From contig PKTT01000002.1 of assembly GCA_002869015.1 (NCBI GenBank), positions 32,299-96,298 of the forward strand: a stretch of 64,000 nt of DNA, written 5' to 3'. Positions 15,055 through 61,421 of this stretch are shown here, piece after piece. The notes below the pieces were generated by a model that was not told the DNA's origin, did not search any database, and was given only the letters and a program-made list of their open reading frames with translations. Both the position numbers and the translations under genes were made by a program. This stretch comes from Deltaproteobacteria bacterium (lineage in GTDB: Bacteria; Desulfobacterota; Deferrisomatia; Deferrisomatales; BM512). The number at the start of each line of letters is the position of its first letter. Position 1 is the first letter of the stretch.

Positions 15055-16422
15055 TCAGGAAACCCCCAGCTTTTCAAGGCGGTACCTGAAGGAGCGGAAG
15101 GAGAGGCCAAGCAACTTTGCCGCCTCTGTTTTATTACCCCCTGTCTTTTTTAGCGCCTGCCTGATAAATGATAACTCTTTTCCGGTTAGGTATGCCTCTA
15201 TGTCCAACCCTTCATCTGGCAGTGACTCATCCTTTAGCCCGACCCCGTCTCGCTTCTCTGAGAGATACTCGGGAAAGCTATTCGGAGAGAGGTACTCCCC
15301 TGTTTCTAGGGCAACGGCCCTCTCGACGAGATTTTCCAGCTCCCTAACGTTTCCGGGGAAGTAGTATCCCTCAAGGAGTGTAAATACCTCAGGCTCTATC
15401 CCAGCCAGGTTTCTTCCAAAAGCCTTCTTGTACTTCTCGAAAAAGTGTTGTGTGAGTAGGGGAATGTCGTTTTTTCGTTCACGTAGCGAAGGGAGCTTAA
15501 TGGTTACAACGTTGAGGCGGTAGTATAGGTCCTCCCGGAAGCTGCCAGCCATTACCTCTTCCGCCAAGTCTCTATTTGTAGCGGAGACAATCCTTACATC
15601 GACATCGATCTCTTTATTTCCGCCTACACGTTTGATCTTCCCTGATTGGAGCACCCTAAGTAGCTTTGGCTGCAAAAGCAGGGGCAACTCTCCAATTTCG
15701 TCAAGAAACAATGTACCTCCGGCAGCCTCCTCAAATAGCCCCGGCTTGTCGGAAGTCGCACCGGTAAAGCTACCTTTTATGTGGCCGAAAAGCTCACTTT
15801 CAAGGAGGCCCTCTGGGATTGCTGAGCAGTTGAGGACGACAAAATTACCCTCTCTACCCGAGAGATCATGTATCCGCTTTGCTACAAGCTCCTTGCCGGT
15901 GCCGCTGTCGCCAAGGATGAGAACAGTTACACCTGTCGGCGCGATCCTCTCCGCTAGCTGCAACATCTCAATGGCGCTTTGGGAACGAGCTATAAAATCG
16001 CCCTTTCCTACGACCTCGGCAATCTTCCTCCTGAGCTCACGGTTCTCACGGGTAAGGGCTCCGCGCTCCAGCGCCTTTCTTATCGTTATCCTTATCTGAT
16101 CTACCTGAAAGGGTTTTGTTATGTAATCGTAAGCGCCAAGTTTCATCGCTTCGACGGCTGTCTCCGGTGTAGCAAAAGCGGTAATTACGATGACCTGGGT
16201 ATCGGGCTGTTTGGCCTTTACCCTTTCGACAATCTCCATCCCATTGCCGTCAGGCAGATTTAGATCGGTTATAAGGACGTCGTATATCTCCGAATCAATT
16301 TTCTCAAAGGCTGAGGCTACATTGCCGCAAGTGGTTGCCTCGTATCCCTCACCCTCCAGAAGAATTTCGAGAAATTCGCACATCGACGTTTCGTCATCTA
16401 CGACAAGTATTCGTTCAATCAT
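15055..16422 (-). CDS. pilR: Sigma-54-dependent response regulator (NtrC family), PilR by synteny
   Basis: REC domain (ILVVDDE...ITDLNLPDGNG). AAA+ domain with GDSGTGKE, ESELFGH and GSFTGA (GAFTGA variant). C-terminal Fis-type HTH (GGNKTEAAKLLGLSFRSFRYRL). ATG at 16422 overlaps the pilS stop (ATGATTGA); the 16476 extension is unlikely. Confidence 0.8.
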   Translation of the reverse strand: MIERILVVDDETSMCEFLEILLEGEGYEATTCGNVASAFEKIDSEIYDVLITDLNLPDGNGMEIVERVKAKQPDTQVIVITAFATPETAVEAMKLGAYDYITKPFQVDQIRITIRKALERGALTRENRELRRKIAEVVGKGDFIARSQSAIEMLQLAERIAPTGVTVLILGDSGTGKELVAKRIHDLSGREGNFVVLNCSAIPEGLLESELFGHIKGSFTGATSDKPGLFEEAAGGTLFLDEIGELPLLLQPKLLRVLQSGKIKRVGGNKEIDVDVRIVSATNRDLAEEVMAGSFREDLYYRLNVVTIKLPSLRERKNDIPLLTQHFFEKYKKAFGRNLAGIEPEVFTLLEGYYFPGNVRELENLVERAVALETGEYLSPNSFPEYLSEKRDGVGLKDESLPDEGLDIEAYLTGKELSFIRQALKKTGGNKTEAAKLLGLSFRSFRYRLEKLGVS

Positions 16423-18019
16423 CCCCGCACTCCAGGGTAATACGAAAGAGCGCCCCGCCTCCGGGGGCATCTTCAAGCGCTACGCTACCTCCGTGATTTT
16501 GAGCTATCCTATGGACAAGCGCAAGGCCCAACCCAGAGCCTGAAGAGGAGCCGCTTACAAATGGCTCGAAGATATTATTTTTAAGGCCTACTTCAACGCC
16601 AGGTCCATTGTCGGCAAAGGTGAACTCAAAATTAGAGCCGTCAAAGCCCCCATTGATTACTACCTCGACCCCTCCAGGTGATGCCGTTAGTGAATTTTTG
16701 AAGAGATTTATTAGCACTTGCTCCATCTTCTCACGGTCACACTTTATAACAGTCCCCTTGGGGAGATTGTTTACCATGGTAAGCACTCCACGCCCCTCAC
16801 CCTGTTCTAGAAAAAGGGCAACCTCATCTACCAAAAGCGAGAAGTCAAAGGAGGATTTATTGACACTTCCGGGTCTTGCATATAGCAAAAATCCGCTAAC
16901 CAGGTTGTTGAGCCTTTCGGTCTCACGCTTGACAATGTTTAAGAGCCGCAGCTCTTTTTCGCTGTCTGGGCTCATGGTGCCGCATATGAGCTCAACGGAG
17001 CCTGATAAACTTGCCAGTGGATTCCGAACTTCATGGGCGAGTCCCGCAGCGAGCCTACCAATAGCCGCTAGCCGATCCGCCTGTTTCAGCCTTTCCGAAA
17101 GCTTTCTAAGCTCCGTTAAATCCTGAAAGTTTATGATCTTGCCTGCGGCAGCGCCCTCATCATTGAGCAGCGGGACTACATTATACCCGAAAGTGACATC
17201 ACCCCTCTCTGTCTCCGCCTCCCCTCTGCCCTCCAGATTCAAGTCGAAAATGCCAGTTATAGCAACAGCATCTTCCGCTTTAACAGATGCGGTCTCAAGG
17301 AGCCTCTTACCGTTGTCATTGATAAACATTATATTGCCGGAGAGGTCAAAGGTTATAAGTCCACTGGCTAATGATTTTAAAATTCCTGTCTGGAGCCTTT
17401 CCAGATCGACAATTTCGCCCCTTGCCTCTTTTAGCGCAGAGGTCGTACGCCTTAGCTCCTCCGCCAGATATCCAGCCAACATCGCGGTGCTGTAGAATGC
17501 GGCAATATTCAAAGCAATTTTAAATGGCAGTGAAATTCCCGAGACAGTTCCGACCTCAAAGGGGGCAATGGGATTCACATAGCCATTAAATTGTAAGAGG
17601 ACGACTAACAGATAAGCAAAAGTGGCCCATGTAGCAGTTACGAAAGCGCCCTTCCTGAAGAAGAGCATTGCAGCGCCGATTATTGTGAAGAGGTAGATGA
17701 GTATCAGGGGGGAAGAGTAGCCACCAGTCAAAAAAATCAACACTGTGGCACAGAACACGTCCCAGACGGGCTGTGCTTTTAATAACCAATCACCGGCTCT
17801 TTTTCTTAGAACAAGTGTCGACGTAACCAAAGTTACGCCAAAGGAGAGGATCGCCATTACCACAAAACCGAAAATGGAGGGGTGAAGAGCGCCCCCTCCA
17901 AAATCACTACCAAGTGACGCGGCTACCGGGATGAGAGCTATAAGAACCGCTGCCCGCCCGAGGAGATATCCCCCTATCCTCTCAGCATTGCTCCCGCCAC
18001 TTTTTCGGCCTAGGGTCAT
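16415..18019 (-). CDS. pilS: Membrane sensor histidine kinase, PilS by synteny
   Basis: About six N-terminal TM helices and a PAS-like region. H-box AHEVRNPLASLSG. ATPase boxes NLFKNSLTA, DNGPGV and GSGLGLALV. Located between pilC and pilR. Confidence 0.75.
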   Translation of the reverse strand: MTLGRKSGGSNAERIGGYLLGRAAVLIALIPVAASLGSDFGGGALHPSIFGFVVMAILSFGVTLVTSTLVLRKRAGDWLLKAQPVWDVFCATVLIFLTGGYSSPLILIYLFTIIGAAMLFFRKGAFVTATWATFAYLLVVLLQFNGYVNPIAPFEVGTVSGISLPFKIALNIAAFYSTAMLAGYLAEELRRTTSALKEARGEIVDLERLQTGILKSLASGLITFDLSGNIMFINDNGKRLLETASVKAEDAVAITGIFDLNLEGRGEAETERGDVTFGYNVVPLLNDEGAAAGKIINFQDLTELRKLSERLKQADRLAAIGRLAAGLAHEVRNPLASLSGSVELICGTMSPDSEKELRLLNIVKRETERLNNLVSGFLLYARPGSVNKSSFDFSLLVDEVALFLEQGEGRGVLTMVNNLPKGTVIKCDREKMEQVLINLFKNSLTASPGGVEVVINGGFDGSNFEFTFADNGPGVEVGLKNNIFEPFVSGSSSGSGLGLALVHRIAQNHGGSVALEDAPGGGALFRITLECGDD

Positions 18020-18022
18020 GAA

Positions 18023-50965: not shown

Positions 50966-52183
50966 CTATTTACCTTTCGGTCGCGTGATGCGAAAGAGGG
51001 TTACCGGGTTTTCGGCGGATCGCATTGATCCTTCGCCAACCTTTTTGGAGCGGCTGAAGGAGAGGTCGACCCACTCAACCTCCATCTCGTTTTCCCGACA
51101 CCATTTAAGCGCTGCGGAGAAGGTCTCGGCTAAAACCGTGGAGACGACCACCACCCCGCCTTCCCGTAGCCGGGCGAAGGCTTTGTCTAGCACCTCTGCG
51201 AGGAACCCGCCCGACCCTCCGATGAAGACTCTGTCCGGGGCGGGCAGTCCATCCAGCGCCGAGGGAGCCAGGCCATCGGCTATATATAGCCCTGCGGTGC
51301 GGAATCTATTTCTATTCTCACGGATGTGCTCGACCGCTTCATGGTCGCGCTCAACCGCCCAGACCTGTATGGCCGGGTTTAAAAGCGCTGCCTCTATACC
51401 AACCGACCCAGAGCCTGCCCCTACATCCCAAAGCACCGCTTTACCCCTAGGAAGTGTAAGAAGACCCATAGCAACCGCTCTGACCGAGGCTTTTGTTATT
51501 CTTCCCCGTGGGTATGTGAAAAGCTCTTCGGGTATTCCCGGGCCAAGGGGGCGCGGGTCATTTTTTGTGTGGACGAGGATGACTACGTTCAAATCCGAAC
51601 CATCCCATTTGACGAAGTCATGGGTGAGCCCTCGCTCAATCCGCTCCTCGGGCTGTCCTAGGTCAGAGCAGACGACCATCTCAAGGTCCTCCCACCCTGT
51701 CTCAATAAGAAAACGGGCGATGCGCGAAGGAGAGTTTATTGAGTCGGTGAAGAGCCCTATCTTAGGTGCGCCGAGCACCTCGACCAGCTCCTGAAGGTCT
51801 CTACCATGGAGGCTGGCAATCCTCGCATCGGACCAGCTCAGACCCGCTCTCGCAAAGGCAACCTGCATCGACGATACGGCTGGGCGGATTATAACCTCGC
51901 CCCTGTCGAATTTTGTAAGAAGCAGGGCGGCTATTCCAAAGAAGGTTGGGTCACCGGAGGCCAGAAAGACAACCTTCAGCTTGTCGTTGCTGCTTAAGCG
52001 TTCCGCAATTTCCGAAATTTTCCCCTCGACCAGCTCCACCTTCGAGGCAAAACTATCAACAAGGAAACGGTGCCTGTCGGCTGTAACTACCATATCGGCG
52101 CGCTCGACAATCTTTCTGCTCTCGGCATCAAGCTTGTCCAAGCCTGGTTGTACACCGATAACCCAGATTCTGTAGTTACTCAT
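50966..52183 (-). CDS. cbiET: Bifunctional cobalt-precorrin-7 (C5)-methyltransferase / cobalt-precorrin-6B (C15)-methyltransferase (decarboxylating)
   Basis: N-terminal tetrapyrrole methylase half (IWVIGVQPG...) fused to a class I SAM methyltransferase half (VLWDVGAGSGSVGIEAA). Confidence 0.85.
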   Translation of the reverse strand: MSNYRIWVIGVQPGLDKLDAESRKIVERADMVVTADRHRFLVDSFASKVELVEGKISEIAERLSSNDKLKVVFLASGDPTFFGIAALLLTKFDRGEVIIRPAVSSMQVAFARAGLSWSDARIASLHGRDLQELVEVLGAPKIGLFTDSINSPSRIARFLIETGWEDLEMVVCSDLGQPEERIERGLTHDFVKWDGSDLNVVILVHTKNDPRPLGPGIPEELFTYPRGRITKASVRAVAMGLLTLPRGKAVLWDVGAGSGSVGIEAALLNPAIQVWAVERDHEAVEHIRENRNRFRTAGLYIADGLAPSALDGLPAPDRVFIGGSGGFLAEVLDKAFARLREGGVVVVSTVLAETFSAALKWCRENEMEVEWVDLSFSRSKKVGEGSMRSAENPVTLFRITRPKGK

Positions 52184-53313
52184 ACCGAAGCACCTCTTTC
52201 AAAAGAGCAGCGGGCAAGCTCCTCACCCTTATACCCAAAGAGCACAGTTTCGATAGCTATAGCCCCTTCGACACGCTCCTGAGCGCGCCTCGCAACCCTA
52301 CAAGTCAATAGCTCAAAGAGTCCTCTATCGCCTGTTTCTCGAAGGTTTTCATATATCTGCCGCGCAGTATTCGCTTTAAGGGCCTCTTTTGCCTCGGCAG
52401 GGGGGAAGCCCGCCTCCTCCATCAACTCCTTCAGAACCGTCAGGTCGAGTGAGGAGTCCTTCACATGGGTTCTGTAGTGACCCCCTGCGACTTTGCAAAA
52501 CTTTGCGAACTGCCCCACTATTACCGCGTCGAGGTCACGCTTGACAGTCTGATCCAACGAATAGCCAACGTGGTCACCCATCAGCACAGCTGCATTCTCG
52601 GCAAGCTCCGGGTAGAGCTTATGCCCGGCCAGTTCGCTGGTCCGCCCGAAGGCAAGGAGCATACGCTTTGCGCCGGCGGCCTTTGCGACATCTAAACAGG
52701 AGTCTATTGTAGCCTCCCATGCCGCCGCGGACATGGGTATTACGATGCCAGTTGTCCCAAGGATGGAGAGACCGCCGACAATGCCAAGCCTGTGATTCAA
52801 GGTTTTTTTAGCCCTCTCAGCACCCTCCGGAGCGCTGATAACAACCCTCACACCACTTATTCCATCTACTTTTTGGAGGCTGACCGCCTCACGCACGGAC
52901 TCCTCAATCATCTCAAGTGGTACAGGGTTTATCGCGGGACTTCCGACCTCAGCCGCAAGGCCCTTTCGCGTCACCCTGCCAACCCCCTCGCCGCCCTCAA
53001 TCTCCACCGTAAAGCCGCCACTGGATGATGCTTTTACTCCTGAGATAAGGGATACCGCGGCGCGAATCTCCATGCCGTTGGTTACATCAGGATCATCGCC
53101 GCCATCCTTTATCACACCACAGGAGGATACCTCTGTATCTTTAGTAAGGCCAACCAACTTGAAGCTACGAAAGGTTGCTGTTTCACGCTTCCAGGGCAGC
53201 TTTAGCGAAACCTCATCAACAGGTGCGCCAAGGAGCGCCATGGTTGCGCCTTTGGCGGCAGCGGCGGCGCAGGCTCCAGTTGAGTATCCGTGACGGAGTC
53301 TCTTCTTAGCCAT
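52180..53313 (-). CDS. cbiD: Cobalt-precorrin-5B (C1)-methyltransferase
   Basis: LRHGYSTGACAAAAAKGA N-terminus characteristic of CbiD. 377 aa. Confidence 0.88.
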   Translation of the reverse strand: MAKKRLRHGYSTGACAAAAAKGATMALLGAPVDEVSLKLPWKRETATFRSFKLVGLTKDTEVSSCGVIKDGGDDPDVTNGMEIRAAVSLISGVKASSSGGFTVEIEGGEGVGRVTRKGLAAEVGSPAINPVPLEMIEESVREAVSLQKVDGISGVRVVISAPEGAERAKKTLNHRLGIVGGLSILGTTGIVIPMSAAAWEATIDSCLDVAKAAGAKRMLLAFGRTSELAGHKLYPELAENAAVLMGDHVGYSLDQTVKRDLDAVIVGQFAKFCKVAGGHYRTHVKDSSLDLTVLKELMEEAGFPPAEAKEALKANTARQIYENLRETGDRGLFELLTCRVARRAQERVEGAIAIETVLFGYKGEELARCSFERGASV

Positions 53314-53324
53314 CGCTTATGAGC

Positions 53325-53978
53325 CTATACCTCGCCCGCAGCGGCTTTCATCAGGGCATTTACGCACGCAGCAGCAACATTTGAGCCCCCCTTGTTGCCC
53401 TTGACGGATATCCACTCAAGGTCGCTGCGCTCCATGAGCGCATCCTTGGACTCAGCAGCCCCGACAAAGCCAACCACCGTGCCAACTATCACCGCCGGTT
53501 TGGCTTTACCCTCATCTACAAGCTCCAAAAGGCGAAAGAGGGCGGTCGGCGCGTTACCGAAGACATATATGGCCCCGGTATGCATACGCGCGGCTTTCTC
53601 GACGGCCGCTATGGAGCGGGTAACCCCGCGCTCTCTGGCATCTTCGACGACCCCTGAGTCGCTTATGTAGCAGAAGGTCTCCGAGCCGAACTTTGCCGCT
53701 CTGACCTTGGATACGCCAGAACGCGCCATCTCAACATCGGTAACAATCGGCGCGCCGCCACTTAAGGCGGAAACAGCAGCGTCAAAGGCCCCGCCGCTCC
53801 ACTTTACCAAGGGCAAAAACGAGGGATCTCCCGTGGCATGGATAACGCGGCCAACCAGCGCTTTCTCCCTGGGAGAAAGGTGCGAGAGGTCCACAAGTGT
53901 ATCTATTATCTCAAAGCTTCTCTTCTCTATCTCATCGGGGCGTATATCGTACCCCCATCTTCCTTTAAGCTCACTCAA
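53325..53978 (-). CDS. cbiC: Cobalt-precorrin-8 methylmutase
   Basis: IEKRSFEIID...VIHATGDP...IYVFGNAPTAL motifs of CbiC/CobH. Confidence 0.88.
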   Translation of the reverse strand: MSELKGRWGYDIRPDEIEKRSFEIIDTLVDLSHLSPREKALVGRVIHATGDPSFLPLVKWSGGAFDAAVSALSGGAPIVTDVEMARSGVSKVRAAKFGSETFCYISDSGVVEDARERGVTRSIAAVEKAARMHTGAIYVFGNAPTALFRLLELVDEGKAKPAVIVGTVVGFVGAAESKDALMERSDLEWISVKGNKGGSNVAAACVNALMKAAAGEV

Positions 53979-54352
53979 CTCAAGCTCTCCTTTATCCTCT
54001 CAAGCGCAATCTCTGCCAACTTTGGATGTGCGCCAATGTGCGAGCTCATTATAAGCTCGAAATCCGGATGTTTTTGTCGCGCCTTCTCAAGCTCCTCCGG
54101 TATATCCTCCAGTACGTGGGCCCCGGGGAAGAGGAAGAAGGGCATGATGGATACCTTGCGGGCACCACCTTCGTAAAGCTCCTCCAGCGCCGCGCCTAGG
54201 GAGGGCTCTGCCAACTGCAAGAACGCCGGCATTACCCTAACACCGCCCATGGCAGCAGAGAGCATCCCCGCCACCTCGCCAAGAGGTAAATTAGCCGCGC
54301 TAACGCGGCTGCCATGGCCCAATAGTAGGACCGCGTCCAGCTTGCCTTCCAT
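53975..54352 (-). CDS. cbiX: Sirohydrochlorin cobaltochelatase, short form (CbiX-S-like)
   Basis: About 125 aa from ATG 54352. VLLLGHGSR and FLFPGAHV motifs of a single CbiX half-domain. ATGA overlap with cbiC. Confidence 0.7.
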   Translation of the reverse strand: MEGKLDAVLLLGHGSRVSAANLPLGEVAGMLSAAMGGVRVMPAFLQLAEPSLGAALEELYEGGARKVSIMPFFLFPGAHVLEDIPEELEKARQKHPDFELIMSSHIGAHPKLAEIALERIKESLS

Positions 54353-54469
54353 AATAAACTCTCCTGGAGAAAATATCAGGTTTTTCCATTTGAAGTGACG
54401 AGCGGTGCGATGCTTGCACAAGGGGGCACTCATGTCAAGAAATGGGGGGTATGTATTTGCCCTCTTTTA

Positions 54470-55852
54470 TCAACCAGCCAAGGGTACGGTAAAGGTGAAT
54501 GTCGCGCCCTTACCCGGAGGCGATTCCACCCAGATATATCCGCCAAGCCGCTCAACTATATCACGGCAGATCGAGAGACCAAGACCCGTACCTAAAGACT
54601 GGTGTTTTTGAGGGTCCCTAAGCTGCTTGAAACGGTCGAATATCTCCCTTAACTTCGATTGATCTATACCGGGTCCCTCATCCGTTACGGAGATTACGGC
54701 AAACCCACCGCGCCGCCTCGCCCTTATAAGTACTTTTGAGCCGAAGGGCGAAAACTTGGAGGCGTTCCCAAGGAGGTTCGTCATCACCTGCATCAACCGG
54801 TCGAAGTCCGCAAGGGCCGGCGGGAGGCTGCGCTCCACATTCACGACAAGTTTCACGCTGTTTTTATCAAAAAGTGCCCGTGTGGCCTGGGTCGCCTTCT
54901 CTACAACTTCCTCAAGGGGTACAGGCACCAACTCTACATCAAGTTTACCAGCTTCTATCTTGGAGTAGTCGAGAAGGTCATTGATCATTCTCGTTAGGCG
55001 GTCCGCCTCGTCATGGATGATCTCCGCAAACTTCCGCCGCTTATCCCTGTCATCGACATCGTAGCGGAGAAAAATCTCCGAAAAAGATTTTATCGAAGTG
55101 AGGGGGGTTCTAAGCTCGTGGCTCACATTTGAGAGGAATTCACTCTTTACCCTATCCAGCTCAAGAAGCCTTTTATTGGCTGCCTCAAGCTCCGCGGTGC
55201 GCTGCCTTACACGTTCTTCCATAACTACGCTGGCGTTATGCACCTGACTATAAAGCCTCGCGTTGACCACTGAGAGGGCCATCTGATTTGCGAGCGCCTG
55301 GAGGAGGGAGACGAATTGCTCACCGAACTTCTCAGGGCCGCGCGTTGAATAAAACATCAAAACCCCAATCGGCTTGCCCTCATGGATCATCGGCACATGC
55401 ACCATGGCTTTTACCGGGAGGGCCATGGAGAGCATTTCAAAGTATGGGGAATGGGGCATTTTGGTAGTGTCGCGCACGACCACCGGCTTGGCATCGAGAA
55501 AAGCCCTGCCGAACATCGTATAACGGGTCGGCACCAGCTTGGTGGCTTCAGCATAGTCGGTATCGAGCCCTATGGCTGCCCTCACCTCAAGCTGGCCCCT
55601 TTCATTTAAAAGCCGGACTCCCATGTGCTGGAAGCCGAAGTTCCTGCGCATGATATCGAGTATTGAGTCAAGCACCTCCGTTAAATCGAAGGATGCGGAG
55701 AGCGTGGATGAGGCTTCATGGAGTACAGAGAGGTCCCTAAGACGCCTTTCAAGCTCTGTGCGCCCCGCCGCAAGCCTTCCAAGGAGCACCCCCGTGAAGA
55801 GAGCGCCCATCGCAAGGCCTATAAAGAGAGCGGCGAGATATATTGAGGCCAT
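54470..55852 (-). CDS. Membrane-anchored GAF-domain sensor histidine kinase
   Basis: One N-terminal TM helix and a GAF region. H-box SHELRTPLTSIKS, N box NLLGNASKF, G1 DEGPGI and G2 GTGLGLSI. Confidence 0.85.
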   Translation of the reverse strand: MASIYLAALFIGLAMGALFTGVLLGRLAAGRTELERRLRDLSVLHEASSTLSASFDLTEVLDSILDIMRRNFGFQHMGVRLLNERGQLEVRAAIGLDTDYAEATKLVPTRYTMFGRAFLDAKPVVVRDTTKMPHSPYFEMLSMALPVKAMVHVPMIHEGKPIGVLMFYSTRGPEKFGEQFVSLLQALANQMALSVVNARLYSQVHNASVVMEERVRQRTAELEAANKRLLELDRVKSEFLSNVSHELRTPLTSIKSFSEIFLRYDVDDRDKRRKFAEIIHDEADRLTRMINDLLDYSKIEAGKLDVELVPVPLEEVVEKATQATRALFDKNSVKLVVNVERSLPPALADFDRLMQVMTNLLGNASKFSPFGSKVLIRARRRGGFAVISVTDEGPGIDQSKLREIFDRFKQLRDPQKHQSLGTGLGLSICRDIVERLGGYIWVESPPGKGATFTFTVPLAG

Positions 55853-55878
55853 AGACTCTCCTCAGCGAACTTTACGCA

Positions 55879-58011
55879 TTAATAACGGGAGTTCTGCCAG
55901 CGCAAGATCAACATCCTGTCGCAGAACGCCTTTGCCTGTGCAAGGGTCCTCACCCCCCTCGCGGCTAGGAGCGGGATGAGTTTTACTAATATCTCAGCGG
56001 TTGCGCGCGCATCCCCCAGGGAGGTATGGCGGCCCTCAATGGTCACCCCCAGCCTGTCGGAGATTGCGTCAAGGCTGTGCCCCTGCAAGTCTCCATGAAC
56101 CCCAAAGGAGAGGAAGAGGGTATCAATAACCGGGTTATCCATAGACACCAGATTATTTTCACGCGCCGCCAATTCGAGAAACTTCATATCGAAGGCGGCA
56201 TTGTGGGCTACAAGCACCGCTTCGCCAACGTACTCTTTGAAGTCCTCAAAAGCTTCACCCATCTTGGGTGCCCCGGCTACCATCTCATCTGTTACGCCGT
56301 GAAATTTTATAGACTCGGGGGGGATTACCATGCCTGGGTCGACGAGGGTATGAAAAACCCCTGAGGAAAGCACTTTGCCCCGCCTGACCCTTACACCGCT
56401 AAGCGAGACGACTCTGTCGCCCTTGGCTGGGCTGAGCCCCGTGGTCTCCGTATCGAAGACGACAAACTCAAGCTCTGAGAGGTCGCGGGAGAGCAGGTCA
56501 CCCGTCTCAAATCCAGGGCGTGCCTGAAATAGGTCGAAATCATAGAACTCGGGCTGGTCGTCCACGATCCTCGCGCCGCCATCCTCCTCTGGCAACAGTG
56601 AGGCCTTCACCATGCCCAAGCGTACCTCGAAGTCATCCCCATGGGAGCGGGTCCAAATCTCGCCCCTGTTACGCCTGACTGCTTCAGTTAAGGAAATCGG
56701 CTCCTCTCCCTCCACCTCTACTGAAAGGTTTTTAAGTTCATCTGGAGAGATATCCTTCGTTCCATTCAGGCTAAAGGTCGTAACAACCATATCTCCCTCC
56801 GCTTCAATAGATGCAAGCAGCGGGCTCCAGCCGTTGGAGTGTGAATCCAGCCAACCTATAACGGTGGACATTGCCGCTACCCAACCAAAGGGTTCAGCAG
56901 CTACCGGCGGCAGGTGTTCGGGCGGATTTGAAAGCTCTGCAAAGACCCCTTTTCTCGCGGCCAGGGCTTCGACAAGTATGGATTGGGCGTCAGCTGGTTG
57001 TCCGGGCCAATAGGCGCTGGGCATTGAGTTAGCTACCTCTTCGCCCTCACCAAGCATTTTCAGGCAGGCGGTAGCCTCTCCATGGAGGGCGGCAGCAAAA
57101 GCAGTGCGTTTCTCTTCGGGAATGTCTTTACGGGTTGCCAGAATCTCCGCGAGAGAGTGCATAGACGATAAAGGCGAACGCAGCATGGAGGGTAGTTTTC
57201 GCAGATGCAGATCAACCCGTTTATCCCGTTCAGCCTCTTCGGTCAAGTCCCTAAAGGCAAGCAGGAACCCGGCTAGCCCATAATTATGCTCGGGCATTAC
57301 CGCCATAACGCCTTTTAGAAGGCGCCCACCTGCGAGGGGAAAGATCACCGGCTCGACCATATCGCGCCTACCCTCATCCCATCCTAGGCGCAGCTGCTTA
57401 AGATGGTACTCAACCCGCTGCGCTGGAAGCACCTGAGTTAATTTTCGTCCAAGCGCAGGGTTGCTCCCGGTGCATAGAGCAGCCCGAGCGCGCGGGTTCA
57501 TCAAGAGGACTTCACCATGCTCATTCAGGACTACTAGCCCCTCTACCATTGTTCTCAAAACCGAGGCAAGGCGGCTCTTCTCCCCCTGTAATGAGACGGT
57601 GACCTCTCTGACCCTATCCTCAAGTTCGCTGTATGCTCCTTCAAGCGCTTCAGCCATAGCGTTGAAATCCGCCGCAAGCGATTCAAGCTCATCCCCGGTG
57701 GAGACGTCTATACGGTGAGAGAGATTGATCCTTGATACTATCTCGGCGCCATGTCTTATTTTGAGGAGCGGCGAGAGCAGCTTGTCAGCAAATCTCCAAG
57801 CAAGGGCTATGCAGACAACGGTAAGTATGCTGCCGAGGACGTAGACTCTTAGCATGAAGTGGGGAGTGGACCCCACAGATTCGGGCAAGGAGGTGAGGAG
57901 CGCCATAACGGCCAGCGCGAAGGGGCAAACCGCCAATAACACTATCGCCGAGACGAGGCGAACGCGAATTCGTTGGGTAAAGGGTATCTGGCGGTCCTGG
58001 GCAGGTGTCAT
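55879..58011 (-). CDS. TM-HAMP-PAS-degenerate histidine-kinase-like protein fused to a C-terminal DEDDh 3'-5' exonuclease (DnaQ/epsilon-like) domain
   Basis: Two TM helices. HAMP (GDELESLAADFNAMAEAL). PAS-like region (LASVLRTMVEGLVVLNEHGEVLLMNPRA). DHp-like SMLRSPLSSMHSLAEIL lacks the H-E dipeptide. CA-like region lacks G1/G2 boxes. Intact exonuclease motifs: FVVFDTETTG (ExoI), VAHNAAFDMKFL (ExoII) and HTSLGDA (ExoIII, H-x4-D). Confidence 0.75.
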   Translation of the reverse strand: MTPAQDRQIPFTQRIRVRLVSAIVLLAVCPFALAVMALLTSLPESVGSTPHFMLRVYVLGSILTVVCIALAWRFADKLLSPLLKIRHGAEIVSRINLSHRIDVSTGDELESLAADFNAMAEALEGAYSELEDRVREVTVSLQGEKSRLASVLRTMVEGLVVLNEHGEVLLMNPRARAALCTGSNPALGRKLTQVLPAQRVEYHLKQLRLGWDEGRRDMVEPVIFPLAGGRLLKGVMAVMPEHNYGLAGFLLAFRDLTEEAERDKRVDLHLRKLPSMLRSPLSSMHSLAEILATRKDIPEEKRTAFAAALHGEATACLKMLGEGEEVANSMPSAYWPGQPADAQSILVEALAARKGVFAELSNPPEHLPPVAAEPFGWVAAMSTVIGWLDSHSNGWSPLLASIEAEGDMVVTTFSLNGTKDISPDELKNLSVEVEGEEPISLTEAVRRNRGEIWTRSHGDDFEVRLGMVKASLLPEEDGGARIVDDQPEFYDFDLFQARPGFETGDLLSRDLSELEFVVFDTETTGLSPAKGDRVVSLSGVRVRRGKVLSSGVFHTLVDPGMVIPPESIKFHGVTDEMVAGAPKMGEAFEDFKEYVGEAVLVAHNAAFDMKFLELAARENNLVSMDNPVIDTLFLSFGVHGDLQGHSLDAISDRLGVTIEGRHTSLGDARATAEILVKLIPLLAARGVRTLAQAKAFCDRMLILRWQNSRY

Positions 58012-58373
58012 TTTTCCAACAAGGCGTTAATCTCCGCCACCAACTCACCGGCATGAAAGGGTTTAGTTATGTAGGCGTCCGCTCCAACCTCAAGACCTTT
58101 TTTGCGCTCAAGGGGCTGGCCCTTAGCCGTAAGCATAATCACTTTGGGGGGTGCATCCTGGGATTTTAGTAAACGGCAGACCTCATAGCCGTCGCGGCGG
58201 GGCATCGCAACGTCGAGCAGCACTATGCCCGGCTCAAAGCTTTTTGCTGCCTCCAAAGCCTCTTCACCATCTCCTGCGGTCTTTACCTCGAACCCCTCCT
58301 CCTCAAGGATGAACTCTAAAGACAAGAGAATATTTGGTTCATCGTCAACGACGAGGACCTTCTTCATGGACAT
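58008..58373 (-). CDS. Stand-alone receiver-domain response regulator (CheY-like)
   Basis: KKVLVVDDE...VLLDVAMPRRDG...MLTAKG...KPF motifs. ATG at 58373 is preceded by GGGAGG. The stop overlaps the start of the exonuclease-sensor gene (ATGA). Confidence 0.85.
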   Translation of the reverse strand: MSMKKVLVVDDEPNILLSLEFILEEEGFEVKTAGDGEEALEAAKSFEPGIVLLDVAMPRRDGYEVCRLLKSQDAPPKVIMLTAKGQPLERKKGLEVGADAYITKPFHAGELVAEINALLEK

Positions 58374-58538
58374 CCGAGACCTCCCGAATCGCCTTGCGAG
58401 CACGGCTGAAATGAAAATATTTCAACTGTAAAACCTTATTTTATTTTGGCTTATCAGTCAATCCGCTTTATCCATTCTAACCTCTGCGGTGCGGCAATCG
58501 CGTTGACAGGCGCACTGGTTGCCCGCTAGGATCAGCCA

Positions 58539-59126
58539 ATGTCCAACAACCCTCATAGACGATTCAAAAGTTCGCCGAAAAGGCGATACCTCCCCCTAGC
58601 CATAGCCGTCTTACTCGGTCTGGGCATTGGTTTATGGACCTCGCACCTCCTGGAAGTTCGCGCCAAGGAGCAGGGTGAGGAGCTATCCCAAACCGTGATC
58701 TCCCTTGTCGGTCAGGCGGCGAAGTTAAAAGAGACAAGGGAGCTTGATGAAGCGCGAAACCTTCTCAAAGCAGCGCTAAAGATGATGGAGCCGGCACCGG
58801 AGCTCCACCAGTCAGAGCCCTATATTAATGTCCTGACAAGCCTCGCGGCCCTTGAGTTGTCAGAAAGTTCGCCGGAGGAAGAGGGGGTGGCGCAAGCTAT
58901 ACAGTACCTCGAAGATGCCTGGAAGTACTCTTCCGGCGCAAAAGATAAAATTCGCGCAACCATAGCCAAAGAGAGAGCTTTTGCCGAGCTGCTCAGCGCC
59001 AATATGGATGATGCGATTCTCTGGCTCAACCGAGCTGCTGACCTTGACCCCGATGAGGAGGAGGTGGTTAAGCAGGTTGAGGTTGTCGAGCGCTATAAAA
59101 GCTGGAGAGAGAGGATCAAGAGGTAG
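58539..59126 (+). CDS. Hypothetical membrane-anchored TPR-like protein
   Basis: Basic N-terminus, one TM helix (YLPLAIAVLLGLGIGLW), then helical repeats (EARNLLKAALKMM; AIQYLEDAWKY; DAILWLNRAADLDP). No family recognised. Confidence 0.45.
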   Translation: MSNNPHRRFKSSPKRRYLPLAIAVLLGLGIGLWTSHLLEVRAKEQGEELSQTVISLVGQAAKLKETRELDEARNLLKAALKMMEPAPELHQSEPYINVLTSLAALELSESSPEEEGVAQAIQYLEDAWKYSSGAKDKIRATIAKERAFAELLSANMDDAILWLNRAADLDPDEEEVVKQVEVVERYKSWRERIKR

Positions 59127-60393
59127 GGGGCGCTCCCCTTTTGGATGGCCGACGACGACGGCGTCCACTTCTTTTGCGAGGCTTTTTTTTCTGGTCTAGA
59201 GGAGTATTCCGCTCTTCTAAATATGACCCCCAATACCCAGCCGCACTGCTTTGACTATCGTCAAAAGCGGCCCAAAGAGAATAAAACTCCCAAGCCTCCG
59301 CAAAATCTTTACGTCTGGCGAACTTGCCCTTTGCCCTGTAGTGTTTGCCCTTAGCGAACCGGTAGCAGGAGAGAATTATCTCCTTTGCCTGATGGCGGAT
59401 ATGCGCTGATATCTGGTAACGGGCGCATAGAGGGGTTACGACTTCCGTAATAGCAGGGGCAGCTTCATCCAGTCTAGCCTCGCCGGTGAGGGGGTAATGG
59501 TTAACCACTGTTGGCAGGGCAAGCGCCGCTATATATCGGTACTCCTGTTGGGAGCGGCCTTTTTTGCTCTCATCGTCCAGGGGTTTTAGCAGGTGATATA
59601 TACCATCCGAAACCTCAACTTCGGGGTATAGATGTTCGAAAAGACCCAGGCGGGAGGCCTCGCGGAAAACCTCCCCGACTATACCCAGATGCTGCATCTG
59701 CCGCACCTCATCCCTCAGCCTGGCAGGAGATGACTCCGAGATAAGGTGCGCGTTTGCCTTTATACCCGATGCAGTTTTGCGCTCAATTGTGAACCCCAGC
59801 CTTGCAGCAAATTCAATAGCTCTTAACATTCTTACGGGGTCTTCAGAGAACCTCTCATCAGGCTCACCGATCAACCGTATTTTTTTGCTCTCAAGGTCGG
59901 AGAGTCCCCCGGCATAGTCGATAATGGAAAAATCATCGAAATTGTAAAGCAGCGCGTTGATTGTGAAGTCGCGTCGCATTGCGTCATCTTCAGGAGAGCC
60001 GAATACCGCCCCGGTTTTATCTCTGTCCTCTGAGGTAAGGTGGCTATCATCCTCCATCTTCTCCAGACCCCTGAAAGTTGTCACCTCAACAATCTTGTCA
60101 GGTGCACCTTTTCGGCGGAAGAACACGTGGGCAAGCCTGAAACGTCTGCCAATGAGCCTACAGTTTCTAAAGAGAGCTTTGACCTCGCTTGGGCGGGCAT
60201 TGGTGCCGATGTCAAAATCTTTAGGTTCTCGCCCAAGAAGTATGTCTCTAACCGCGCCTCCTACTATATAAGCGAGATAACCCGAGCGGCGTAGCCGCCT
60301 CAACACCCAGAGCGCATCGTCATCGACCAGCGAGCGGCTAAGAGTATGCTCAGGCCGGGCTAAAGTAATGGGAAGTTTCTTTTTTGGCGTCAT
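59116..60393 (-). CDS. pcnB: Poly(A) polymerase I / CCA-adding enzyme family nucleotidyltransferase
   Basis: AYIVGGAVRDILLGREPKDFDIGT catalytic motif, RRDFTINAL, and a basic C-terminal tail (KKKPRKRSGRRRRRPSKR). ATG at 60393 is supported by an extended -10 element (TGTTACAAT) at 60445-60453 on the minus strand. Confidence 0.8.
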   Translation of the reverse strand: MTPKKKLPITLARPEHTLSRSLVDDDALWVLRRLRRSGYLAYIVGGAVRDILLGREPKDFDIGTNARPSEVKALFRNCRLIGRRFRLAHVFFRRKGAPDKIVEVTTFRGLEKMEDDSHLTSEDRDKTGAVFGSPEDDAMRRDFTINALLYNFDDFSIIDYAGGLSDLESKKIRLIGEPDERFSEDPVRMLRAIEFAARLGFTIERKTASGIKANAHLISESSPARLRDEVRQMQHLGIVGEVFREASRLGLFEHLYPEVEVSDGIYHLLKPLDDESKKGRSQQEYRYIAALALPTVVNHYPLTGEARLDEAAPAITEVVTPLCARYQISAHIRHQAKEIILSCYRFAKGKHYRAKGKFARRKDFAEAWEFYSLWAAFDDSQSSAAGYWGSYLEERNTPLDQKKKPRKRSGRRRRRPSKRGAPPTS

Positions 60394-60444
60394 GGCTCTT
60401 TCTGTAATGCATTTAACAGCTGAAATGGTCTTTTGCTGGCGCGC

Positions 60445-60453
60445 ATTGTAACA
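60445..60453 (-). promoter_or_regulatory. Extended -10 promoter element for pcnB
   Basis: Minus strand TGtTACAAT, about 50 nt upstream of ATG 60393. No good -35 element. Confidence 0.35.
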
Positions 60454-60569
60454 AAATCGACACCTTGGAGCGAGGATTGTTGCCGATGCCACAAATTTAA
60501 ACCATTGGCTCAATGCATCCGTCAAAGATGTGGTTATGTTTAAGGGGGCAATTTCTTCGTCACTTAAGT

Positions 60570-60597
60570 TTGAAAACTTCCACACAAGTTGTAAAAT
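60570..60597 (+). promoter_or_regulatory. Sigma-70 promoter for the DsbC-like gene cluster
   Basis: TTGAAA (60570-60575), a 16-nt spacer ending in TG, then TAAAAT (60592-60597). GGAGGG at 60621-60626 lies 6 nt before the TTG start at 60633. Confidence 0.5.
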
Positions 60598-60632
60598 GCC
60601 GTTGTTACTAATTTTTTAGCGGAGGGTTTGGA

Positions 60633-61421
60633 TTGAATTACAAGGCTTTTAAAATACTTCTTTTCGTGAGCATGCTAACTCTTATTGCCTCAGCGGCTTT
60701 TGCCTTCGGCGGATGCAGCGAAGGTGAATGCAAGGACTGTCACAGTTTATCGATTGAGCAAGCGCAGGAGGCGATTGAGCCCCTTGGAGTAAAATCAGAG
60801 GTCACTGATGTAAGGTTTTCAAGCGTGCCGGGGCTTTGGGAGGTTGACGTCACCGACAAAAAAGGTGGCAAGATACCCGTTTACCTGGACTTTTCCCTAA
60901 ATTACCTGATACAGGGCGACATAATTGAGATAGCGACCCGCCAGTCTCTGACGAGGATGCGCCACGCCGAGCTTAACCGCATAAACCCCTCAGTAATTCC
61001 TCTCGAAGACGCTGTGGTACTTGGCGACCCCGAGGCAAAGCACAGGGTCATCGTATTCGATGACCCCGAATGCCCGTTCTGCAAAAAAATGCAGGCGGAG
61101 ATGCATAAGGTTGTGGAGGAGCGAAAGGATATAGCCTTCTTCATCAAGATGCTTCCCCTTAAGATCCATCCCAATGCGCGCGATAAGGCGAAGACGATAA
61201 TCTGCGAAAAATCAATTGAACTTCTGGATAAAAGCCTTGCCGGAGAGGAACTGCCGCCCCCGACATGCGAGACCGACGTCATAGAGAAGAATGAAGATTT
61301 GGCTGCCGGCCTTGGAATAAAATCTACACCCACGATAATACTCCCAGATGGGCGCATATTTCCGGGTGCCAAGAGAGCCGAGGATATAATCTCATTCGTA
61401 GACAACCCGATTGATGATTAA
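60633..61421 (+). CDS. DsbC/DsbG-like periplasmic thiol:disulfide interchange protein
   Basis: Signal peptide, N-terminal dimerisation-type domain, and thioredoxin fold with active site CPFC (DDPECPFCKK). An extra N-terminal CSEGECKDC motif. Confidence 0.75.
   Translation: MNYKAFKILLFVSMLTLIASAAFAFGGCSEGECKDCHSLSIEQAQEAIEPLGVKSEVTDVRFSSVPGLWEVDVTDKKGGKIPVYLDFSLNYLIQGDIIEIATRQSLTRMRHAELNRINPSVIPLEDAVVLGDPEAKHRVIVFDDPECPFCKKMQAEMHKVVEERKDIAFFIKMLPLKIHPNARDKAKTIICEKSIELLDKSLAGEELPPPTCETDVIEKNEDLAAGLGIKSTPTIILPDGRIFPGAKRAEDIISFVDNPIDD

Follow-up and report, generated by a model that had tools for sequence, protein, structure and literature searches.

The usual readouts of two-component signaling are transcription factors, cyclases and proteins of chemotaxis. 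The paradigm for a bacterial pseudokinase with a defined job is DivL of Caulobacter crescentus, in which a tyrosine replaces the phospho-accepting histidine and a PAS domain lies adjacent, and which binds the phosphorylated single-domain receiver DivK through its DHp (dimerization and histidine phosphotransfer) and PAS domains, the signal flowing in reverse (PMC5361649). The pair PP_0354/PP_0353 of Pseudomonas putida represents the targets most strongly dependent on the MxtR/ErdR (CrbS/CrbR) two-component system; deletion has only mild effects when pyruvate or propionate is supplied, and neither gene has an assigned function (PMC9927547; bioRxiv 10.64898/2026.09.07.749794; PMC5715377). Here we analyzed a gene at 55879..58011 on the minus strand of a 64,000-nucleotide stretch of the genome of a Deltaproteobacteria bacterium (assembly GCA_002869015.1, contig PKTT01000002.1; the entire stretch is referred to as the window). 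From an ATG start, it encodes a protein of 710 residues in which two transmembrane (TM) helices, a HAMP domain, a probable PAS domain and a pseudokinase core precede a DEDDh exonuclease.

Similar to DivL (PDB 4q20), the protein displays a DHp domain followed by a CA (catalytic and ATP-binding) fold, with the histidine replaced, a PAS domain directly upstream and a single-domain receiver as partner, here known as a neighboring gene. DivL, however, is devoid of enzymatic output and controls the kinase CckA, whereas the 710-residue protein carries an exonuclease with intact catalytic residues. Its CA-like domain is moreover far more degenerate, having a shorter lid and none of the N, G1 and G2 boxes, and receiver binding is in this case something that we infer. 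By gene context the nearest studied relative is PP_0353/PP_0354 (PA3232/PA3233 type), where the gene of a DEDDh exonuclease of the RNase_T family (PP_0353) is likewise linked to that of a cNMP-CBS-DUF294 nucleotidyltransferase (PP_0354) and to acs or genes for acetate/pyruvate transport. Those enzymes are however stand-alone (208 and 240 residues in two examples), soluble and transcriptionally controlled, while the nuclease studied here is fused to a sensor chassis, is equipped with its own regulator and kinase, shares only ~28% identity with them and has no DUF294 gene in the window.

The reading we favor, with a probability of roughly 45%, is that the protein serves as the effector arm of a dedicated three-gene module of receiver, pseudokinase-exonuclease and kinase, in which the phosphorylated receiver would dock on the histidine-less DHp domain and gate the nuclease. 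The neighboring GAF kinase would sense a cytoplasmic cue and phosphorylate the receiver-only regulator, which would then engage the conserved response-regulator face of the pseudo-DHp beside the PAS domain, as DivK does on DivL. A helical rearrangement would pass through the dead CA-like domain and a PEFYDFDLF linker and turn the 3'-5' exonuclease on or off, and HAMP and PAS may supply a second input. Pseudokinases and DEDDh nucleases are each of known kinds; their combination as a two-component effector would appear to be the new element.

Kinase core and exonuclease domain

Domains were annotated with Pfam profiles against per-family cutoffs, with matches looked for up to E<=1. At this level neither HisKA nor HATPase_c is detected in the 710-residue protein, and Pfam leaves residues ~262-505 without annotation. 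A family profile of this middle region was aligned by hhalign to a profile of 50 partner-kinase cores, yielding a probability of 99.8% and an E-value of 3e-29 over 215 columns. An AlphaFold model of residues 255-512 (predicted local distance difference test score, pLDDT, 81.5) displays a pair of long helices and, after them, an alpha/beta sandwich. The best 50 matches of this core model in a Foldseek search of the PDB are without exception DHp+CA cores of histidine kinases or kinase-like proteins, among them HK853 (2e-9), an EnvZ chimera, ZraS, YycG, DivL (4q20), RetS and ChpT. Profile alignment and predicted fold together identify the middle region as a pseudokinase with a histidine-kinase core fold, that is a DHp hairpin and a Bergerat-type alpha/beta domain.

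The DHp-like helical hairpin (residues 258-329; 57025..57240, minus strand; model helices 257-293 and 299-329) is devoid of a phospho-acceptor, with the H-box reading P-S275-M-L-R-S-P-L. The degenerate CA-like alpha/beta domain (residues 338-470; 56602..57000, minus strand) was assigned from the same hhalign comparison and from Foldseek, with no HATPase_c match in Pfam. In the hhalign register, the phospho-acceptor histidine corresponds to S275, the catalytic glutamate (+1) to M276 and the phosphatase Thr/Asn (+4) to S279, while the N-box asparagine is replaced by W387 and the D-x-G-x-G of the G1 box by L415-N-G417-T-K419; about 13 residues of the F-box/ATP lid are deleted and the G2 box is reduced to G435. 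The initial annotation had proposed that the H-E pair is replaced in the DHp-like helix SMLRSPLSSMHSLAEIL (residues 275-291). The histidine is indeed absent, but the H-box register was one residue off, S275 being the histidine position when anchored on R-x-P-L. Its LNGTKD in place of the G1 box is found at residues 415-420, in the register just given, and its EEPISL (residues 436-441) was right about the loss of the G2 box but misplaced it, as the box aligns to (gap)-E434-G435-E436-E437-P438, ~2 residues upstream. The motifs of the genuine kinases of the window, SHELRTPL (54470-55852) and AHEVRNPL (16415-18022), read as reported, and the profile searches return no competent HisKA/HATPase_c pair, in support of a dead core. 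The second of these kinases (minus strand) is unrelated to the module and served as comparison.

Among 105 aligned relatives, the former histidine position is occupied by E (61), Q (15), R (6), S (5) or T (5), His not being among the common residues, with G/L/D at +1 and G/A/S/R at +4. Lacking the phospho-acceptor histidine, the phosphatase motif and the ATP-binding motifs, the core is predicted neither to phosphorylate nor to dephosphorylate. A pseudogene or a decaying kinase was rejected in view of the large family and of the conservation of the dead motifs themselves, for example the invariant W387. Tryptophans are located at residues 335, 377, 387 and 453 of the CA-like domain, several of which show full or almost full conservation among Geobacter-type members, including W387 in place of the asparagine that formerly bound Mg-ATP. 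What used to be the nucleotide pocket may now be filled or may accommodate another ligand.

Attached to this core is the DEDDh 3'-5' exonuclease domain (residues 515-684; 55960..56469, minus strand), with residues 517-675 matching the RNase_T/DEDDh profile PF00929 at 114.8 bits (cutoff 24; E 7.5e-33). The motifs reported previously as intact, DTETTG (520-525), HNAAFD (603-608) and HTSLGD (662-667), are all recovered, and the catalytic pentad of D520, E522, D608, H662 and D667 is kept without exception (105/105) in the aligned relatives, which represent several phyla; this speaks for selection on catalysis. Judged by its residues, the C-terminal domain is a catalytically equipped member of the PolC/DnaQ type, with every catalytic position kept. 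PDB sequence matches of the domain include the T. maritima PolC exonuclease 2p1j (2.4e-25), PolC 9qpc and E. coli epsilon (~2e-15), whereas the match to RNase T is marginal (8e-4, partial coverage) and Orn is absent from the matches. Between phyla, the fused exonuclease domains share 41-62% identity among themselves and 32-41% with PolC. The proofreading domains of PolC and DnaQ (epsilon; 2p1j, 1j53) are thus the nearest relatives (30-41% identity), with Exo I, II and III (H-x4-D) in common. They are however parts of replicative polymerases, while the 710-residue protein is without polymerase, PHP and theta/alpha-binding parts, is membrane-anchored and resides in a signaling operon.

DEDDh enzymes such as Orn clear nanoRNA/pGpG-type messengers. 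The initial annotation had named oligoribonucleotides, pGpG-type breakdown products of second messengers or nucleic-acid ends as speculative substrates. For an enzyme that degrades nanoRNA, pGpG or cyclic oligonucleotides and thereby ends second-messenger signaling, the Orn-type precedent and the membrane signaling context would be suitable. The grouping of the domain with PolC and epsilon, with Orn not matched, nevertheless leaves an Orn/pGpG-type substrate without sequence support. Neither GGDEF, EAL, HD-GYP nor CD-NTase is present among the annotated recurrent neighbor clusters, and PADLOC yields generic DEDDh matches only. We therefore consider messenger clearance highly improbable. An anti-phage defense system was also rejected, in view of the generic character of these PADLOC matches and of neighbors with signaling, transporter and housekeeping roles.

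Between core and exonuclease, a near-invariant motif, P-E-F-Y-D-F-D-L-F (residues 487-495; 56527..56553, minus strand), follows directly on a disordered stretch, the pLDDT staying below 50 for residues 475-486 and reaching 50-68 within the motif itself. In the 105 relatives, the proline is kept in 101, the glutamate in 100, Y490 in 102, F492 in 105 and L494 in 102, and the 'YDFxL' core still occurs in fusions as divergent as those of Paracoccus and Rhizobium. The motif looks like a short linear docking peptide. In our reading, it loosely resembles the sliding-clamp-binding peptide QL[SD]LF, with the leading Gln absent, and this opens the alternative of a DNA-directed nuclease that is recruited through the linker and serves in repair, in proofreading or in the breakdown of incoming DNA. 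Replicative proofreading domains are indeed the nearest relatives by sequence, and an invariant short linear motif in a disordered linker would be congruent with such recruitment. On the other hand, the conserved neighbors are signaling, transporter and DUF294 genes rather than genes of DNA metabolism, and membrane anchoring would be odd for a replisome partner. In P. putida, moreover, deletion of pp_0353, the gene of the stand-alone DUF294-linked exonuclease, left growth in DNA-supplemented media unchanged, and DNA alone supported the growth of none of the strains (PMC9927547). Hence, we see very little chance that DNA is the target. The protein terminates with a conserved helix (residues 690-709; 55885..55944, minus strand; family consensus FCDRxLLLRWQSSRF), identified from the alignment and the model.

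The flanking receiver and kinase

Immediately upstream of the exonuclease gene lies a receiver-only response regulator (REC, without output domain; 58008..58403, minus strand; Pfam Response_reg 108.9 bits), whose stop overlaps the exonuclease-gene start by 4 nucleotides. Its translation holds the acidic pair DD, a candidate phospho-acceptor aspartate in LLDVAMP, a threonine in MLTAKG and a lysine in ITKPF. The open reading frame (ORF) as listed starts at GTG (58373-58403 region of the window) and spans 131 residues; since the orthologues in two relatives (L001 and L002) comprise 121, the true start is probably M11 at nucleotide 58373 (MSMKKVLVVDDE...), giving 121 residues. The partner sensor kinase (54470..55852, minus strand; 460 residues) starts 26 nucleotides downstream of the exonuclease gene and consists of a hydrophobic N-terminal segment, likely TM, followed by GAF (GAF_2, 69 bits), HisKA (80.6 bits; SHELRTPL) and HATPase_c (107.8 bits) domains, with all catalytic motifs intact. 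As the gene is flanked by a dedicated response regulator and kinase, which the initial annotation had overlooked, the most likely source of the signal changes.

The arrangement recurs in the family, as assessed over 80 genome loci (79 for the upstream regulator). In 62/79 loci the gene directly upstream, in the same orientation, encodes a REC-only protein, a genuine, orthologous kinase adjoins in 46/80, downstream or upstream of the regulator, and at least one of regulator, kinase or DUF294 is found in 76/80. Geobacter-type loci are ordered regulator, exonuclease protein, a 63-residue membrane protein, GAF kinase (~1055 residues) and DUF294 in three of the four loci examined. Two copies of the module are located on plasmid 1 of Paracoccus denitrificans PD1222 (L084, NC_008688.1 29741-43420; L086, NC_008688.1 624125-638742), one with the order acs, DUF4212, sodium:solute symporter family (SSF) gene, DUF294, hypothetical, regulator and exonuclease, the other with DUF294, an 81-residue protein, kinase, regulator and exonuclease. 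In the clade of the window (58-92% identity), the module is reduced to three genes, with pcnB on one side and cobalamin genes on the other.

How a receiver could act on a kinase without histidine is suggested by the surface of the pseudo-DHp, which keeps the motif L-R-x-P-L-A-N-L-R-A-A-x-E. Counted from the former histidine, the entropies are 0.42 bits at +7, 1.06 at +8, 0.55 at +11, 0.0 at +12 and 0.62 at +14, compared to a hairpin mean of 1.80, and these positions correspond to response-regulator contacts in the HK853-RR468 complex. From this pattern of conservation, the pseudo-DHp looks like a retained docking surface. In the window pair, the residues at +8, +11, +14 and +15 (S, S, E and I) are identical in pseudokinase and kinase. 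The similarity of pseudo-DHp and kinase DHp is furthermore higher within than across loci, with 32/10000 permutations reaching the observed value (185/10000 without the window clade), and an excess of same-locus similarity is present in the loop and alpha-2 (205/10000).

The same excess would also fit a different arrangement, reminiscent of RetS and GacS, where the pseudo-DHp hetero-oligomerizes with the DHp of the partner kinase, tuning it or being tuned by it, and where the receiver would be the endpoint of the pathway and would not feed into the nuclease. Indeed, the two DHp domains are homologous and notably similar, RetS is among the structural matches, and both proteins are probably located at the membrane, because the exonuclease protein is anchored and the N-terminus of the kinase is hydrophobic. 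Such modulation leaves the attached, invariant catalytic nuclease without explanation, however, and a receiver-only regulator would still need a target, for which the pseudokinase is the only conserved candidate. For these reasons, we find it doubtful that kinase modulation is the principal task.

Several observations weigh against an effector arm gated by the receiver. At the alpha-1 specificity positions no same-locus excess is seen (5202/10000 permutations), the partner kinases barely varying there, and overall the covariation between pseudo-DHp and kinase is a weak signal with a small same-locus excess. Docking of the receiver on the pseudo-DHp is a step that we infer from the conserved surface and from DivL. 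Finally, the regulator is absent upstream in 17/79 loci, mostly with DUF294 in its place, and thus the nuclease can work without two-component partners.

The latter loci are also congruent with a one-component sensor-nuclease, where the TM, HAMP and PAS parts of the protein itself would drive the exonuclease through a rigid dead-kinase chassis, with flanking regulator and kinase merely co-expressed as a separate branch or phosphate sink. The previously proposed domain order (two TM helices, HAMP, PAS, DHp-like, CA-like, exonuclease) is borne out by Pfam, hydropathy, AlphaFold and profile alignment, and in the full-length AlphaFold model (pLDDT 81.3) TM helix 1 spans residues 11-41, TM helix 2 50-72, HAMP and signaling helix extend to ~154, and PAS (158-255), the DHp-like hairpin (257-329), the CA-like domain (338-469), a disordered linker (475-486), the exonuclease (515-684) and the C-terminal helix (690-709) follow. 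Hydropathy delineates two hydrophobic segments, at residues ~19-41 and ~52-72, connected by a loop of ~10 residues. TM helix 1 is assigned to residues ~17-41 (57889..57963, minus strand) and is preceded by an arginine-rich RIRVR, which places the N-terminus in the cytoplasm, and TM helix 2 to residues ~50-72 (57796..57864, minus strand), from hydropathy and the model. The HAMP domain (residues 73-125; 57637..57795, minus strand; Pfam match 76-124 at 37.5 bits, cutoff 25) comes directly after TM helix 2 and runs into the long signaling helix (model helices 50-94 and 108-154). The PAS domain (residues 147-257; 57241..57573, minus strand), immediately N-terminal to the DHp-like helices, is a probable assignment from sub-cutoff Pfam matches (PAS_4, residues 155-260, 21.8 bits, slightly below the cutoff of 23.1; PAS, 17.9 bits, below 22.6), from the many homologues that carry precomputed PAS matches, and from the model, where residues 158-255 form an alpha/beta unit of five beta-strands and short helices.

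The protein is hence membrane-anchored with a cytoplasmic body, and its N-terminal chassis is of the usual dimeric kinase type: TM hairpin, HAMP, signaling helix, PAS and DHp-type helical hairpin. The same TM, HAMP, PAS and DHp chassis is found in the WalK/VicK kinases (NCBIfam HK_WalK, E 6.6e-20 over residues 53-292; 4i5s over 94-292), which are however active, with histidine and ATP-binding boxes, and carry no nuclease. Longer paralogues (~830 and ~910 residues) contain an insertion of 100-200 residues between the TM helices (up to 205 alignment columns at residue 38), which by its position is a periplasmic domain and is absent from the 710-residue copy. The latter lacks an extracytoplasmic sensor domain, because its inter-TM loop measures ~10 residues only; of the extracytoplasmic or HAMP signal envisaged in the initial annotation, the HAMP domain is present, but an extracytoplasmic signal is unlikely for this copy. 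For the one-component alternative, the signal would be a membrane state or a PAS ligand, in line with the conserved HAMP and PAS domains, and the periplasmic domain of the paralogues argues for direct sensing there. Yet the 710-residue copy is devoid of that domain, the regulator is tightly linked in 62/79 loci and translationally overlapping in the window, and the surface of the His-less H-box is retained. We consider a one-component sensor-nuclease unlikely as well.

Gene neighborhoods and the possible substrate

If the nuclease is the gated effector of the module, its neighbors hint at what it may act on. In 46/80 loci, a cNMP-CBS-DUF294 nucleotidyltransferase is encoded no more than 8 kb away, in many cases next to acs or to genes for acetate-type transporters, and sodium:solute symporters with DUF4212 or DUF485 small subunits are recurrent. 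Two examples of the ~900-residue proteobacterial partner kinases possess an SLC5/SSF-like N-terminal domain (Pfam SSF, 27.2 bits, above the cutoff; 19.8 bits in Paracoccus, below it). Kinases of this type resemble the SLC5-fused CbrA/CrbS, in the symporter-like N-terminus as well as in the proximity to SSF/DUF4212, DUF485 or acs genes, whereas the window kinase is a 460-residue GAF kinase without SSF-like domain. The known CbrA/CrbS systems act via DNA-binding regulators and not through a receiver-only protein and a nuclease (PMC5715377).

In P. aeruginosa, a stand-alone pair of DUF294 and DEDDh exonuclease adjoins actP/DUF485, and Vibrio pelagius has a similar stand-alone pair without adjacent transporter genes. 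The fused exonuclease shares 28% identity with such DUF294-linked enzymes (Vibrio, P. aeruginosa; 62-75 bits) and scores higher with PolC (97-103 bits), while the own best matches of the P. aeruginosa stand-alone exonuclease are fused domains. Orthology is unsupported by these values, and the fused nuclease is connected to the stand-alone pairs by gene association, not by descent. In the preprint of Price et al., an apparent match to 'DUF294' is in fact DUF2946.

As a preferred guess, the nuclease would strip, from an RNA or a nucleotidyl adduct, 3'-terminal nucleotides that are added by a DUF294-type transferase, with carbon-source uptake or assimilation being tuned as a consequence. The family would then function as the signal-gated 'eraser' of a nucleotide-addition cycle in which DUF294 is the 'writer', acting on an RNA 3' end or on a nucleotidylylated transporter or Acs and controlling acetate/pyruvate uptake or assimilation; we regard this extension as speculative and rather unlikely. 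The window and its 58-92% clade are without a nearby DUF294 or transporter gene, so that the substrate idea is imported from distant relatives, and a function in common with the stand-alone enzymes is not shown by a 28% identity with PolC closer. Searches of the 64-kb window with queries from three lineages retrieved no DUF294, SSF transporter or small TM partner gene, and the 61%-identical relative (L091) has no DUF294 gene in a range of 10 kb.

A small hydrophobic protein without Pfam match is encoded directly before the partner kinase in several lineages, with 63 residues in Geobacter-type loci, 81 in Paracoccus and ~100 in other Proteobacteria (L081 10829-11020; L083 10186-10377; L092 8033-8224; L093 12545-12736; L086 2241-2486). 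It recalls the DUF4212/DUF485 subunits of sodium:solute symporters. The window is devoid of it, and the window kinase is also without a long N-terminal region. A hydrophobic hypothetical protein of 165-194 residues, again without Pfam match, follows DUF294 in Paracoccus, Skermanella and Rhizobium (L084 7712-8209; L085 7764-8348; L087 4446-4970), and in Skermanella it is succeeded by a chemoreceptor gene, not by the exonuclease gene.

In the window itself, a gene for a TPR-like protein of 195 residues (58539-59126, plus strand) separates the module from pcnB, encoding poly(A) polymerase (59116-60585, minus strand; two genes upstream of the module), whose stop it overlaps by 11 nucleotides, and a DsbC-like thioredoxin-fold gene (60633-61421, plus strand) lies farther upstream. 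This order is kept in relatives at 58% (L001), 61% (L091) and 92% (L002) identity, and not in Geobacter-type or proteobacterial loci. A nucleotidyltransferase such as pcnB near an exonuclease is suggestive, but probably reflects clade synteny; given the intervening opposite-strand gene and its absence from the other loci, pcnB was rejected as a functional partner. Directly downstream of the partner kinase, a 152-residue ORF (53975-54433, minus strand; cbiX is a guess) is followed by cobalamin-biosynthesis genes, the whole block covering 50966-54433 on the minus strand. The syntenic downstream genes of the 61%-identical relative carry CbiC, CbiD, methyltransferase and CbiG Pfam domains. Since the first gene starts 36 nucleotides after the kinase stop, read-through from the signaling operon into the cobalamin genes is possible. 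No Rfam match to a regulatory RNA or riboswitch was obtained at E<=0.1 in 53500-61000, and a scan for promoters and terminators around the operon gave no more sites than shuffled sequence.

Family spread and significance

An exhaustive search of 50%-identity representatives recovered 845 clusters at E<=1e-30, and among the 150 matches listed of these, most are ~700 residues long and cover most of the query. The taxa comprise Desulfuromonadota, Alpha-, Beta- and Gammaproteobacteria and Nitrospirota. A word-indexed search retrieved full-length homologues (E=0 to 1e-193; 45-92% identity) from Geobacter, Desulfuromonadales and Deferrisomatales, while the species genomes of GTDB hold at least 584 relatives, those at ~30% full-length identity including representatives of Rhodospirillales, Competibacteraceae, Ectothiorhodospira, Rhodoferax, Comamonas, Polaromonas, Desulfobacter and Nitrospirota. 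The full-length homologues bear no annotation beyond 'exonuclease domain-containing protein', 'HAMP domain-containing protein' or 'DNA polymerase III epsilon', and full-text literature searches found no published description of a fusion of kinase core and exonuclease. The family is hence widespread and, as far as could be found, functionally undescribed; the architecture had been called unusual, which is apt in the latter sense, but with 845 clusters it is not rare.

The new information is the dedicated regulator/kinase module and the family-wide link to DUF294 nucleotidyltransferases and monocarboxylate uptake genes. A receiver-only regulator next to a dead kinase with a live-looking exonuclease points to a nuclease that phosphorylation controls directly and post-transcriptionally, and the module looks like a new bacterial nuclease switch, with an on and an off state. 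It would also add one more to the few pseudokinases of bacteria that have a defined job. The family is present in culturable organisms, among them Geobacter, Comamonas and the genetically tractable Paracoccus denitrificans PD1222 with PDEN_RS22695 and PDEN_RS25415, and the association with DUF294 and acetate/pyruvate transporters ties it to the question of PP_0353/PP_0354. If the reading as an eraser were true, a new class of two-component output would emerge, running from regulator to pseudokinase to nuclease without a transcription factor, and a function would be provided for the widespread, unexplained DUF294/exonuclease pairs of the CrbS/CrbR regulon.

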